From NCBI GenBank assembly GCA_963833225.1, contig CAWHXD010000019.1, positions 704,001-768,000 on the forward strand: a stretch of DNA of 64,000 bases, written 5' to 3'. Below are positions 47,950 through 56,254 of this stretch, piece after piece; the first letter of the stretch is position 1, and every line of letters starts with the position of its first letter. Made by a program: the position numbers and the translations under genes. The notes beneath the pieces are model-generated. The model did no database searches and had not been told where the DNA came from. It saw nothing but the letters and a program-made list of their open reading frames with translations. This DNA is from an uncultured Chloroflexia bacterium. GTDB lineage: Bacteria > Chloroflexota > Limnocylindria > Limnocylindrales > CSP1-4.

Positions 47950-47977
47950 CAACCGCGCCACCCAGTGCGGGAAGCCT
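47950..47977 (+). repeat. Degenerate terminal inverted repeat copy (TIR0)
   Basis: CAACCGCGCCACCCAGTGCGGGAAGCCT, 24/28 identical to TIR1. Confidence 0.75.
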
Positions 47978-48190
47978 ACGCGGTCTTTCGGCGGATGGCC
48001 TCGTCGTTCGCCTCGAACTGGGCATCAACGGAACTGCGCTCCGACGCAGCAAGCCGGTCCAACGTCGGGCTCGCGGTGGAGAACCGCACCAACTCGCAGC
48101 CTCACGCGCTACACGCGTGAGGCCGCGTCGCACCGCGAAGTTCGTGTCCGTCATGTCCGGCGTGGAGGGGAAGAGTTGGAGGTCGTGGCC

Positions 48191-48820
48191 TTGAGGATGC
48201 CGGCGCTCATGGTTGCGGTCGCGATCGTCGCCGTGCTGGCGGCCGCGACGCCCGCACTCGCAGGTCCATGCCCGAACACGCCTTGCGGTCTCTCTTGGCA
48301 GCAGTTCAATGCGGCGAGCCCCTGGATCGCGCTCGCCCGCTACGAAGGCGTGCATGACGGTCGCGCGCAGTTCGCCGTCATCGACGTCCTCAAGGGACGC
48401 CCCCACCGCTGGGCGTCCTCCAAGGACGACGCCTGGCTGTTCGGGTTCTTCGGTCGTCACCAGCGGATCGGCTCACGATGGCTGCTCGCCGGCGAGCCCC
48501 ACGAGCTCATCTGGACCTTCAAGGTCAGGCCCGACGGAACCGTGGAGAATTCCGAGGAAGGCGAGGGGTTCTTCGACGACTACCCGTACACCCTCGCCGG
48601 GTGGTATCGCGCCCTCGGCGGCTCGCCGCCGGACACAGCGACGATCCCCCAGCAGCCGACCCGAGGAAACGAGACGCCGATTGCGTTCCTCGTCGCGGCC
48701 TCTATTGCGGGGTTCGCGCTCGCCCTTCGCCGACGCCGACCTGGTGGGCTGGCCTCGTCCCCGAGGACCGGCGTCCTCACGCGTATAGCGCAAAGGCTCC
48801 CAGCTCGCCTTGACGAGTGA
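48191..48820 (+). CDS. Secreted protein with C-terminal sorting-like tail
   Basis: Signal peptide MPALMVAVAIVAVLAAATPALA; C-terminal PPDTAT, TM helix, RRRR. Confidence 0.6.
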   Translation: MRMPALMVAVAIVAVLAAATPALAGPCPNTPCGLSWQQFNAASPWIALARYEGVHDGRAQFAVIDVLKGRPHRWASSKDDAWLFGFFGRHQRIGSRWLLAGEPHELIWTFKVRPDGTVENSEEGEGFFDDYPYTLAGWYRALGGSPPDTATIPQQPTRGNETPIAFLVAASIAGFALALRRRRPGGLASSPRTGVLTRIAQRLPARLDE

Positions 48821-49105
48821 CCTTCGTTCAGATCCGAGGGATCAGGCAGCGTGTTCTGGTCCTGCCTCACAAGGCATCCTGCAACTGCGCCACCCAGTGT
48901 GTGAAACCTGTTGGTTATGGACCATGCCATCGGCAGGGCAGCATCGGCAGGACGTCTGGCACCTTGACCGTGAGGCGATCCCGCCGGACGATCGCATCAG
49001 GGACAAGGAGACGAGAAGCTTGGTGATCGCTGCGGAGTCAGGCCCTCAGCGGGGGCGCGCCGGGCGAGCCGTGGCCTGCGGGCCTCGCCCGAGTCTCGAC
49101 GCACC

Positions 49106-49603
49106 GTGAACATGAACATGCTCACGGTGTTCCTCACGTTCTTCGCCGTGGCCGGTCCGCCGGTCGTTGAGGCGATGCGCGCCAGACGACGGCTCGATGA
49201 CGCCCTCGTCGCTCGCGGGTCCCTGCCGCGTCACCCGGGGCGTGGGCTCCCGCCGGGAATGTCGATGTTGGAGGCACTTCGCCTGTTCGTCGTAACCTGG
49301 GGCCGTCAAGACACGATCCGCGTGGACTTGGCGATCGAGGACTTCGAGCGCAGCAAGCAGGCCGCGAAGCTGGGTCACGATCTGCCAGAGGGCCGGGCGG
49401 CAGGGAGATGGACGATCGCAGCGTTGCTGCTCTGGCTTCTCGGTCTGCCGCTTGTCTTGATGCTCCTGCCGACGGCGGACCGCGTCGTGAGCGTTGTTGT
49501 CCCCGCATTCGCCGTCATCCGGGTCCCGCTCGTCATCGCCGGCTGCTGGGCCGTCTGGCACGCGATCCGCGTGGCACGCTCGGCCGCGTCAGGCGGCTCC
49601 TGA
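49106..49603 (+). CDS. Passenger membrane protein (hypothetical)
   Basis: Three hydrophobic segments; lies inside the TIR pair. Confidence 0.55.
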   Translation: MNMNMLTVFLTFFAVAGPPVVEAMRARRRLDDALVARGSLPRHPGRGLPPGMSMLEALRLFVVTWGRQDTIRVDLAIEDFERSKQAAKLGHDLPEGRAAGRWTIAALLLWLLGLPLVLMLLPTADRVVSVVVPAFAVIRVPLVIAGCWAVWHAIRVARSAASGGS

Positions 49604-54534: not shown

Positions 54535-54580
54535 TTGCATAATAGGATTGACAACAAGGCAAAAGTTGCATAGTCTATTA
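54535..54580 (+). promoter_or_regulatory. Sigma70 promoter and probable autoregulatory operator of the TA operon
   Basis: TTGACA(54548)-17 nt-TAGTCT; TTGCATA repeated at 54535 and 54566; ATG 7 nt after the -10 box (leaderless). Confidence 0.7.
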
Positions 54581-54583
54581 TCC

Positions 54584-54901
54584 ATGCCTAACCGGACGCT
54601 TCCTCCGTACCCGCGCTACACCAGGCTCGCCGCCGACCTCGGTGAGCGGATCCGCCTCGCCCGGCTGCGCCGCCGCATGACTGCGGACCAGATGGCCGAA
54701 CGGATGGGGGTGACCCGTGTCACCTTGCACCGGCTGGAGCAGGGCAATCTGTCTGTCGGCTTCGGGGTTCTCGTCCGAGCGCTCGGGGTACTCGGTCTGG
54801 AGGAGGACATCGCGGCGATCGCGGCCGACGACGAACTCGGCAGGCAGCTCGCTGATGCGGCGGTCAAGCCGACCTATCGGCCGAGAAGGAACGCGCCGTG
54901 A
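54584..54901 (+). CDS. XRE/HipB-like HTH antitoxin
   Basis: LGERIRLARLRRRMT...AERMGVTRVTLHRLEQG; GTGA overlap with the toxin gene. Confidence 0.85.
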   Translation: MPNRTLPPYPRYTRLAADLGERIRLARLRRRMTADQMAERMGVTRVTLHRLEQGNLSVGFGVLVRALGVLGLEEDIAAIAADDELGRQLADAAVKPTYRPRRNAP

Positions 54902-56136
54902 CCAGCAGCGAACTCGACACGGTCTCCGTGGAACTCGACGCAGCAGAACTCGGTGGTCCACTGGCCATCGGCACCCTGCGACGAACGCGCGCCCCGGGTG
55001 GCTCGCTCGTCGGCTTCGCCTACAGTGACGACTGGCTCGCCCGGCGTGACGCGTTCACGATCGACCCCCTGCACGGGCTCTTTCCAGGTGACCAGTGGCC
55101 GCGCGACGGGAAGATTGACCGCATCTTCACCGACGCGGCAACCGATCGCTGGGGCCGGACCCTGCTTGCCAGGCGCGAGGCACACCTCGCGCGGACCGAG
55201 CGGCGGCCACGGCGGACCCTCGACGAATGGGACTACCTCCTCAGGATCTCCGACGTCTCCCGGATGGGTGCGCTGCGCTTCCGCACGCCCGGCGGTCCCT
55301 ACCTCGACGAGAACGACGGCGTGCCGCCGATGACGCGCCTGCCGGAGCTGCTCTCTGCCGCCCACGAGATCGAGCGCCCCCGCAGTGCGAATTGGGAGGC
55401 CGAGAGCCTGGCCCTCCTGCTCGCCCCGGGCAGTTCGTTGGGCGGTGCTCGACCGAAGGCAAGCTACGTGGACCCCGACGGGTCGCTCTGGATCGCGAAG
55501 TTTCCCTCGCGGACCGACCAGCGCGACATGGCCACATGCGAGTACGTGCTGAACGAGATCGCGGCTGCGGCCGGGATCGACGTGCCCGAGCATCGGCTCC
55601 TGAGCATCGGCGAGGGTCGCCATTCGTTCGCCGCAAAGCGATTCGACCGGACCCCATCAACCCGACGTCTCTATGCCTCGTCAATGACGCTCCTCTCGCG
55701 CCGCGACAGGGAGGAGGCGAGCTACCTCGACATCGCCCTCGCGATCGCGGACCACGGGGAGACTGGCGCGATCAACGACATGCTCGCGGAGATGTTCCGG
55801 CGCGTGGTGTTCAACGTCGCCGTCGCTCATCGCGATGACCATCTCCGCAACCACGGGTTCATCAGGACGCCCCGCGGCTGGCGGCTGGCGCCGGCGTTCG
55901 ATCTGAACCCGATGCCCGAGATCCCCGAGCATGCGCTCGCGATCGACGACGCCGATCACACCGGAGACCTTGACCTCGTGTCGAGCACGGCCGCGTTCTA
56001 CCGCCTGCCCGAGCAGCGGGCGTCCGCAGTCATCGACGAGGTCATGACGGCGGTCAAGGCGTGGAAGACGCCAGCCCGGAAGGTGGGGCTCGGCCCGGTC
56101 GAGATGGACACGATCGCCGAGGCGGTGGAACGGTGA
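54898..56136 (+). CDS. hipA: HipA-family kinase toxin
   Basis: GSSLGGARPKA, WIAKFPS, KRFDR, DDHLRNHG, LAPAFDLNP. Confidence 0.93.
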   Translation: MTSSELDTVSVELDAAELGGPLAIGTLRRTRAPGGSLVGFAYSDDWLARRDAFTIDPLHGLFPGDQWPRDGKIDRIFTDAATDRWGRTLLARREAHLARTERRPRRTLDEWDYLLRISDVSRMGALRFRTPGGPYLDENDGVPPMTRLPELLSAAHEIERPRSANWEAESLALLLAPGSSLGGARPKASYVDPDGSLWIAKFPSRTDQRDMATCEYVLNEIAAAAGIDVPEHRLLSIGEGRHSFAAKRFDRTPSTRRLYASSMTLLSRRDREEASYLDIALAIADHGETGAINDMLAEMFRRVVFNVAVAHRDDHLRNHGFIRTPRGWRLAPAFDLNPMPEIPEHALAIDDADHTGDLDLVSSTAAFYRLPEQRASAVIDEVMTAVKAWKTPARKVGLGPVEMDTIAEAVER

Positions 56137-56254
56137 GACCGGCTTGCCAGCCGCCGTGCTCCTCGAGATGGCCACGGTCTCGCGCGATCGTTCGACATGG
56201 CGTCGATGCCGAGGTTTCCCACACCCGGTGGCGCAGTTGGGGCATCCCTCGCGC

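Follow-up and report, generated by a model that had tools for sequence, protein, structure and literature searches.

The 64,000-nt stretch of an uncultured Chloroflexia genome analyzed here (hereafter the window, to which all positions refer unless a locus identifier is given) contains two neighboring units that share one kind of terminal inverted repeat (TIR). Unit 1 carries a transposase gene and unit 2 a hipBA-type gene pair, and together they sit beside the promoter of a gene encoding an ArsR-type helix-turn-helix (HTH) and AHSA1 protein. It seems likely that this region is a composite transposon and that it represents, within the prokaryotic Mutator (IS256-like) superfamily, a lineage without a name, the ends of which also bound cargo cassettes. 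Based on a target-site duplication (TSD) that surrounds only the pair of units, and on an empty site in a genome of the same genus, we infer that the pair moved to its present location as one piece by means of its outer ends. Identifiers beginning with L, G and X refer to fetched loci, genomes and sequencing runs (contigs), respectively, and the coordinates of the features are collected in Table 1.

Ends, target duplication and empty site

A preliminary description of this DNA had reported five copies of one end. A scan with the pattern CAACTGCGCCACCNNNTGTGNGAAACC, allowing up to 3 mismatches, recovered 5 matches in the window against 0 expected from 100 shuffles. Alignment likewise reproduced the reported identity of TIR1 and TIR2 over 28/28 nt and the GTTATG common to both, and extended their likeness to 47 nt at 85%; TIR2 and TIR3 do face outward across 10 bp, as had been stated. 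TIR3 and TIR4 are identical at 27/27 positions, and the same three positions set both of them apart from TIR1 and TIR2. The proposal that each unit has its own co-varying pair of ends is therefore correct for the window, but it fails as a rule of the family, as the two ends of a single unit differ at those three positions in L043, L049, L050, L061, L062 and L065. The genome search for the end motif that had been suggested returned only the window's five copies in the 3.89-Mb genome, with no sixth end found by either the pattern search or an nhmmer profile built from 39 ends (next match E = 2). These 27–28-bp repeats are transposon ends.

The outermost pair, TIR1 and TIR4, is flanked by GGCATCCT and GGCATCCC, which agree at 7/8 positions and form an imperfect 8–9-bp duplication. 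Separate TSDs were also sought for each unit, and gave 5/9 for unit 1 alone and 5/9 for unit 2 alone. An empty site, which the preliminary description had recommended looking for in relatives, was found in the same-genus genome G407, where CCTCACAAGCGGCTATCC-CGTGCTTGACA stands in place of the window's CCTCACAAGGCATCCTg, 7358 bp and GGGCATCCCTCGCGCTTGACA. In five same-genus genomes the ArsR gene is present and no TIR was detected at up to 8 mismatches.

To account for this arrangement, we propose that the family transposase would act in trans on any pair of ends and that movement would follow a copy-out/paste-in route through a circle, by analogy with IS256. The two units would have become joined at another, earlier location, and the spacer of 10 bp between them may be a relic of that event: its length fits a circle junction, and equally a single duplication produced when one hot spot was hit for a second time. 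The order TIR2, 10 bp, TIR3 has the geometry of the abutted inverted repeats (IRs) of a circle junction (6–10 bp), but the units on its two sides are different ones. TIR1 and TIR4, as the outer ends, would then have carried the pair to the present site as one piece, the nested insertion sequence (IS) described below would have entered unit 1 later than this move, and the island is probably immobile in this genome today.

The preliminary description had instead envisaged that cassettes are stacked at one site, in which case the two units would have arrived by separate insertions at this promoter. TIR units do recur at the ArsR-AHSA1 promoter type. Those of L060, L066 and L067 also adjoin such promoters, and G071, from another genus, has a lipoprotein cassette of ~507 bp at the homologous promoter junction; with the window, these junctions indicate that this promoter type has been hit repeatedly. 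In addition, a second TTGACA-directed hit would be expected to space the units one duplication apart, and the spacer measures 10 bp. Against in situ stacking, however, neither unit has a duplication of its own, and the spacer does not resemble the GGCATCC(C/T) duplication that flanks the pair. As the duplication is found only around the composite, we regard separate arrival, and with it stacking at the ArsR-AHSA1 site, as improbable. Stacking was not recovered as a family behavior either, as tandem units occur only in the window and not in the 24 distinct TIR-bearing stretches. The reading we prefer therefore continues to be that of a composite that moved as a unit.

The recurrent link to one promoter type, and the different cargo found at homologous junctions in the window and in G071, could also suggest that the repeats are regulatory or repetitive extragenic palindromic (REP)-like sequences, or that they are integron-like recombination sites for which the ArsR-AHSA1 promoter serves as a platform. 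We give this suggestion very little credence, given that there are just 5 end copies in the genome, that inverted pairs with 8–9-bp duplications occur at unrelated sites, that no recombinase gene was found in or beside the units, and that most insertions lie away from ArsR promoters. When six loci were compared with the window by tblastx, compositional matches predominated, and the only homology gained was that of ArsR-AHSA1, already seen by blastn.

The ArsR-AHSA1 promoter itself (56255–56290; compared with L094–L098, L045, L060, L066 and L067) is conserved across genera. The conserved parts are TTGACA, TGTGAC-N6-GTCAC(A) and, immediately before the ATG, a -10 box of the form TATTGT/TAACAT, and L049 has an operator of the same TGTGAC-N6-GTCAC type before a different gene. 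To the left of the island, the flank is conserved up to 45592. When window positions 45593–48864 are compared with L094 (G202) and L095 (G407), both of the same genus, the DNA between this flank and the ArsR promoter is unrelated. The distance from the left flank to ArsR is 1.5 kb in G202, 7 kb in G407 and 10.7 kb in the window, so that the whole interval is variable, beyond the TIR units.

Table 1. Positions of the ends, units, genes and flanking features of the island in the window
Feature	Position	Strand	Remarks
Copy 0	47950–47976	+	3 mismatches to pattern; degenerate, solo
Orphan 207-aa gene	48197–48820	+	Between copy 0 and TIR1; signal-peptide-like N-terminus, C-terminal hydrophobic anchor
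Left target-duplication copy AGGCATCCT	48872–48880		Followed by one extra base, G 48881
Unit 1, transposase-bearing element	48882–54466	-	5585 bp, of which 2730 bp are the nested IS and its duplicated 8 bp
TIR1	48882–48909	+	Left end of unit 1
165-aa open reading frame (ORF) with hydrophobic segments	49106–49603	+	Transposase-distal end of unit 1; may be cargo
Own transposase, main body	49653–51445	-	DDE core, CxxH motif, two DUF4379 zinc ribbons
Nested IS256-family IS	51474–54195	-	2722 bp; imperfect IRs GGTCAAGTCCCAGCAC.../GGTCATGTCCCCAGAC...; Transposase_mut E 6e-65
IS110-family IS within IS256-family transposase gene	51690–53046 (approximate)	-	DEDD_Tnp_IS110 E 1e-16 (Pfam)
Own transposase, N-terminal stub	54173–54406	-	Residues 19–64 at 54310–54173; ORF start possibly 54406
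TIR2	54439–54466 (27-nt match 54440–54466)	-	Right end of unit 1
Spacer TACAGCCACT	54467–54476		10 bp between outward-facing TIR2 and TIR3; unlike present target duplication
Unit 2, transposase-less hipBA cassette	54477–56239	+	1763 bp, TIR3 to TIR4
TIR3	54477–54503	+	Left end of unit 2
hipB-like HTH gene	54584–54901	+	HTH_31 E 1e-10; TIGR03070 below its cut-off
hipA	54898–56136	+	HipA_C E 5e-47
TIR4	56213–56239	-	Right end of unit 2
Right target-duplication copy GGGCATCCC	56240–56248		Compared with left copy and G407 empty site
TTGACA -35 hexamer, ArsR-AHSA1 promoter	56255–56260	+	15 nt from TIR4 outer end; then palindrome TGTGAC-N6-GTCAC, then TATTGT
ArsR-type HTH + AHSA1/SRPBCC gene	56292–57086	+	Pfam HTH_20 and AHSA1; NCBIfam matches below cut-offs

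The remaining end, copy 0, lacks a partner in inverted orientation. On its left it is flanked by DNA similar to the ancestral sequence that precedes the ArsR promoter (GCCATCCC against GGCATCCC, the flank right of TIR4; 7/8). Over 45 nt the copy 0 region is 80% identical to TIR1 together with its flank, and the 17 nt of left flank, which resemble the ancestral site, are 80% like the left flank of TIR1. We considered whether an earlier element, inserted at this hot spot, had copy 0 for its left end, and rejected this because the sequence left of TIR1 is the ancestral flank CCTCACAAGG, as in G407, and not a right end. The orphan 207-aa gene may be cargo of a decayed unit. No homologue of it was found in 400 genomes of the family (E ≤ 1e-8), and the enclosing ORF (47810–48820) has no Pfam family. 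Just upstream of copy 0, at 47858–47915, there are ~3.6 tandem copies of a 16-nt unit (GTGGCGGCGGAGCGGT-like).

The transposase-bearing unit and its nested insertion sequences

A piece of the outer transposase gene of unit 1 has homologues in 38 of the 400 genomes of the family. The closest is in G376 (L042 7239–10185), where it belongs to a 2947-bp element whose ends are identical at 27/27 positions and whose TSD, GCGCTCAGG, is perfect (9/9). A second element, in L058, is 2617 bp long, contains an uninterrupted 663-aa ORF and also has a 9/9 TSD. Unit 1 is 87–89% identical at the nucleotide level to the G376 element, which lacks any such interruption, on both sides of the nested IS. The G376 element, otherwise intact, has an in-frame TGA and an apparent compensating frameshift pair around the catalytic E, defects that may reflect homopolymer error of a long-read metagenome-assembled genome (MAG).

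Between TIR1 and TIR2 there are three transposase genes, all on the minus strand, as seen from Pfam matches and six-frame translation. The unit's own transposase was mapped by tblastn with the intact 663-aa L058 protein as query, to which it is 78–79% identical: residues 19–64 correspond to 54310–54173, residues 64–405 to 51445–50420 and residues 402–660 to 50429–49653. The nested IS therefore interrupts the gene at residue 64, and the gene also contains a frameshift near 50420–50429 (about 50425). In Pfam this window copy matches DUF4379 (E 1.8e-21), with weak matches to Transposase_mut and MULE.

The nested IS belongs to the IS256 family and is bounded by a perfect 8-bp TSD, AGGGCCGG, at 51466–51473 and 54196–54203. 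Its transposase gene extends from 54058 to 51516 and is frameshifted once, near 53430, and the IS110-family IS lying within that gene has a frameshift of its own in the transposase, near 52150. Contigs of three runs join 51689 to 53047 with ~15 other letters between. Each of the two nested ISs occurs once in the genome. The nested insertions are not assembly errors; some of the three transposase frameshifts, unlike them, may be, since similar defects are seen in several related MAGs.

The preliminary description had taken the canonical Mutator/IS256-type gene to be the owner of the 27-bp ends, and unit 1 to be an autonomous IS256-like element. The strong Transposase_mut match inside unit 1 (E 6e-65), adjoining TIR2, is what this interpretation would lead one to expect. 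The gene, however, lies in an element with IRs and a perfect 8-bp TSD of its own; the intact elements with 27-bp ends, in G376 and L058, have no such gene; and the tblastn mapping places the insertion across residue 64 of the outer transposase. We consider this interpretation almost certainly wrong. Autonomy is not borne out either: with its own transposase split at residue 64 and frameshifted, unit 1 is not autonomous now.

The 165-aa ORF at the other end of the unit has no Pfam family. Homology between unit 1 and G376 ends at 49622 and returns only for the last 42 nt, and the position of this ORF is occupied by a DUF2975 + HTH_26 pair in G376 and by a 128-aa membrane ORF in L058.

The hipBA unit, related cassettes and target choice

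Much as the preliminary description had it, unit 2 contains a promoter-like region, a hipB-like HTH gene and hipA only (Pfam and NCBIfam). The hipB stop (54899–54901) overlaps the hipA start at 54898, and the predicted products fit the layout of a HipBA type II toxin–antitoxin system, with a putative HipA kinase-fold toxin following an overlapping HTH antitoxin; matches to the NCBIfam HipA and HipB models are below cut-offs. The promoter-like elements of the unit are TTGACA (54549–54554) and TAGTCT. In the promoter region, 54521–54583, two TTGCATA repeats flank these elements and are likely to be a HipB operator, and other genomes with hipBA loci that lack the TIR show conservation of this stretch as well.

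Relatives of HipA occur in 45 of the 400 family genomes, and the 11 closest hipA loci (55–70% amino-acid identity) have no TIR. The homology of TIR-less hipBA loci, in 11 other genomes, to the window covers 54521–56124 only. Taken together, these two results indicate that hipBA is an ordinary module that was packaged between the ends here. That it could stabilise the array, as the preliminary description had proposed, is conjecture.

A search of related MAGs for cargo between paired ends had been suggested, and transposase-less cassettes with the same ends, some with target duplications, were found there. A one-genome-per-species scan gave 12 loci with the exact end pattern, L058 among them, all in Chloroflexota MAGs. 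The genome and metagenome scans combined gave 26 loci, which represent 24 distinct stretches (L048 and L064 are one contig); insertion sites are shared between L052 and L073, L063 and L071, and L065 and L072. A cassette containing DUF2975 + HTH_26 genes is 929–930 bp long with both ends in L043, L061, L062 and L065, and 1168 bp long in L068. Many more contigs have one detected end of this cassette, and at least 12 different flanks were seen overall. Homology among its copies begins exactly at the outer CAAC, and its TSDs are 9/9 in L061 and 8/8 in L065. A SnoaL_2 cassette in L050 has an 8/8 TSD, and other cargo includes lipoprotein-like proteins (L049, G071) and a 158-aa membrane protein (L066).

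In total, at least five cargo kinds other than hipBA are carried in transposase-less cassettes with family ends, and by blastp the cargo proteins of different cassettes are unrelated to each other. Among the two-ended units outside the window (n = 10), the TSD is a perfect 8–9 bp in 5, 7/9 in 1 and absent from 4. Unit 2 (hipBA only) and the DUF2975/HTH_26, SnoaL_2 and lipoprotein-like cassettes all consist of passenger genes between cognate IRs without a transposase, which is the organization of a mobile insertion cassette (MIC).

An alternative view of unit 2 is that a chromosomal hipBA became bracketed by two solo ends of decayed elements, and would move, if at all, only as an arm of the composite. 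Solo ends do exist, in the form of copy 0 and of many one-ended loci, and a hipBA cassette with both ends is known from the window only. TIR3 and TIR4, however, match at 27/27 positions, are correctly inverted and leave only 17–76 nt extra on each side of hipBA, and the same packaging is seen for five further types of cargo. Furthermore, a contig from run X4 (406 nt, depth 3.7) containing the hipA 3' end and TIR4 matches 55861–56240, departs from the window sequence exactly at the outer end and continues with 26 nt unlike the window; the highest share of words matched in any of the sequencing runs was 0.23. We therefore find the bracketing of a resident hipBA doubtful, and favor a packaged cassette, putatively mobile in its own right, as part of the composite transposon.

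A preference in target choice can also be seen. The hexamer TGTCAA, which is TTGACA reading outward, lies 10–16 nt (mode 15) outside 15 of 37 unique ends, compared with 0.04 expected, and the extended target consensus is GTCAC(C/A)TGTCAA. Of 11 two-ended units, 10 have it on one side and not on the other, and L068 has it on neither. The same motif is found at 14–15 nt in 4/4 relatives that have transposases 46–49% identical and different TIRs. The TIRs of these four relatives share a CTGCGCCA-like core, and one of the four has a perfect 8-bp duplication. Judged from these sequences, insertion 10–16 bp from TTGACA is a family trait.

Several observations weigh against the composite-transposon reading, or against parts of it. 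The TSD of the composite is imperfect (7/8), and its chance probability is about 0.01 by estimate, with offsets allowed. The model does not account for copy 0 and its 17-nt flank likeness, which give the order flank, end, gene, flank, end. All three transposase genes contain frameshifts that may be assembly errors, and four of the ten two-ended units outside the window have no TSD (L043, L062, L066 and L068). The hipBA cassette has both TIRs only in the window, where its own TSD is 5/9, and the X4 contig is the sole hint of a second location for it. A contig of run X1, in turn, matches 54500–54823 and departs at 54500, inside TIR3, which suggests that a near-identical hipB may exist without that end; these two contigs are opposing, weak hints on the mobility of the cassette. 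As for the target, a TAnnnT box 15–19 nt past TTGACA is present in only 6/15 cases, and 5 of the 6 are ArsR-AHSA1-type promoters with the TGTGAC-N6-GTCAC operator, so that the target may be the hexamer and not a functional promoter. Finally, transposition itself is deduced here by comparing sequences.

The transposase family and its relation to known systems

The family transposase has ~660 aa and consists of an N-terminal CHCC finger, an RNase-H-like core with DDE and CxxH motifs, and two C-terminal DUF4379 zinc ribbons. Residues D190, D263, H287 and E370 are invariant in 25 family sequences, which also share the N-terminal C-H-C-C and the cysteines of both C-terminal ribbons. The CxxH motif takes the form CExH after the second aspartate (D2), its histidine being H287, and reads CEFH in the window copy, 21 aa past D2. 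In Pfam, the transposase matches DUF4379 (E 4e-20) and scores 28 bits with Transposase_mut, for which the gathering score is 21.

An AlphaFold2 model of the protein (pLDDT 83) places helices from 285 to 353 between D2 and E. The top five Foldseek matches of this model are ISCth4 transposase chains (E 3e-9 to 5e-8, target-normalised TM 0.52), with the Hermes and P element transposases ranking below them. The family thus combines a D,D,E triad on an RNase-H-like fold and a C/D(2)H motif in a helical insert with 27–28-bp TIRs and perfect 8–9-bp direct repeats in 5/10 two-ended units outside the window, all of which are features of the Mutator superfamily in the sense of the prokaryotic p-MULT families.

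Curated family models did not claim these proteins. With the NCBIfam transpos_IS256 model the L058 protein scored 25 bits and five relatives 18–34, against a cut-off of 150, and the IS1249 model gave 14–24 bits against a cut-off of 300. For six family members the ISKra4 model (NF033572, present in the library) gave no match at E ≤ 10, and no ISLre2 family was among the matches. A sequence search of the PDB returned only DUF4379 zinc-ribbon proteins of kinetoplastid mitoribosomes, which is uninformative on function.

The preliminary description had called the family uncharacterised, and this stands as far as the sources queried go. A word-indexed protein search gave 28 relatives, 6 of them labelled 'hypothetical protein' and the others nameless. 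An exhaustive protein search gave 485 proteins at E ≤ 1e-30, and among the best 150 of these ~30 are full-length and the rest are DUF4379-repeat proteins. The DUF4379 literature included no bacterial transposase among the matches listed, and the ISKra4, ISLre2 and p-MULT literature no later description of the lineage among the matches listed; ISfinder and the supplementary tables of PMC3942029 may list members.

Other Mutator-like elements are also present in this genome, outside the window. A distant superfamily member, 25–30% identical and frameshifted, was found at G000:C19:145437–148449 in a 3013-bp element with perfect 24-bp IRs unrelated to the window TIRs and an 8-bp TSD, TGGCGCGC. This element is inserted where a tRNA gene apparently has its 3' end, and TTGACA is absent from its vicinity. 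Two further loci, G000:C6:148829–149986 and G000:C7:31422–32579, have identical ISKra4-model scores (147 bits against a cut-off of 205) and point to another Mutator-like IS with two copies in this genome.

The p-MULT families have been characterized by promoter-proximal insertion, 8–9-bp direct repeats, a terminal C, circle intermediates with 6–10-bp junctions and a C/D(2)H motif 11–19 aa after D2, according to the sections available of PMC3942029, which is also the source for the comparisons with IS families below. In the TnGBS/ISLre2 and ISKra4 lineage, insertion takes place 15–17 bp upstream of the -35 boxes of sigma-A promoters, and near-perfect IRs permit both orientations. The elements described here resemble this lineage in the DDE triad, the C/D(2)H motif after D2 and the long helical insert of the transposase, in IRs in the 18–39 bp range with 8–9-bp direct repeats, and probably in insertion at a fixed short distance upstream of a -35 hexamer (15–17 bp there, 10–16 from TTGACA with a mode of 15 here). 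They also resemble it in having near-perfect IRs and in inserting in either orientation, and some elements of that lineage have extra genes and some of its members are found in Chloroflexi. In contrast, the protein described here is ~200 aa longer and has an N-terminal CHCC finger and two DUF4379 ribbons, neither of which is mentioned in those sections, and transposase-less cassettes are not described in them (PMC3942029).

The IS256 family (IS256, IS1249 and ISCth4) provides the closest fold (ISCth4 structures 6xgx, 6xg8 and 6xgw) and the closest sequence model (Pfam Transposase_mut), and shares the 8–9-bp duplications; a circle intermediate would be expected by the same likeness (PMC3942029). 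It differs in that our curated scores are far below the cut-offs and in that insertion here is biased toward TTGACA, while the available sections describe IS256 as inserting without site preference (PMC3942029). The combination of a DDE core with DUF4379 zinc ribbons is a new feature, undescribed in those sections (PMC3942029).

These comparisons add to the prokaryotic Mutator superfamily an unnamed lineage with a distinct DDE + DUF4379 architecture, and extend insertion close to a -35-like hexamer to a group that has its nearest relatives, in sequence and fold, among the IS256-type enzymes, which the literature, in the sections available, calls untargeted. In Chloroflexota, where mobile elements have received little study, the family has many derivatives that carry genes but no transposase. 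They represent a concrete path by which small accessory genes could spread, with cargo that spans membrane proteins, regulators and one toxin–antitoxin pair. A transposase able to insert DNA upstream of promoters at a fixed distance, leaving genes undisrupted, would also be of practical interest, and since cassettes and intact elements occur as a natural series, it can be tested what determines the recognition of ends and the choice of target.

The Pack-MULEs of plants are non-autonomous elements of the Mutator superfamily in which TIRs enclose captured host sequence. The cassettes described here differ from them in carrying whole genes with their own promoters, and in doing so in bacteria. 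One could go further and suppose that an IS256-like lineage gained TTGACA-proximal targeting independently of TnGBS/ISLre2/ISKra4, with the hexamer read by the DUF4379 ribbons or the CHCC finger, that its transposase-less derivatives serve, much like Pack-MULEs, as vehicles for whole genes along with the promoters of these, and that repeated hits and the use of outermost ends build and move arrays. We put this scheme forward as speculative, and think it rather unlikely to be right as a whole.

The concept of passenger cassettes is not new. It has precedents in the MICs, with MIC231 of Bacillus cereus and TnXax1-related cassettes of Xanthomonas as examples: according to the available sections of PMC4337579, these too have passenger genes within the IRs of a cognate transposon and no transposase. 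Some target duplications, solo IRs, tandem clusters and toxin/antitoxin cargo are described for them as well, and the use of neighboring ends has been proposed there (PMC4337579). Compared with MICs, the transposase superfamily here is Mutator-like instead of IS4 or Tn3, and 8–9-bp duplications and probably promoter-proximal insertion accompany it. This is a new lineage that combines known behaviors, namely the chemistry of the Mutator superfamily, derivatives of the MIC type and targeting close to a -35-like hexamer.

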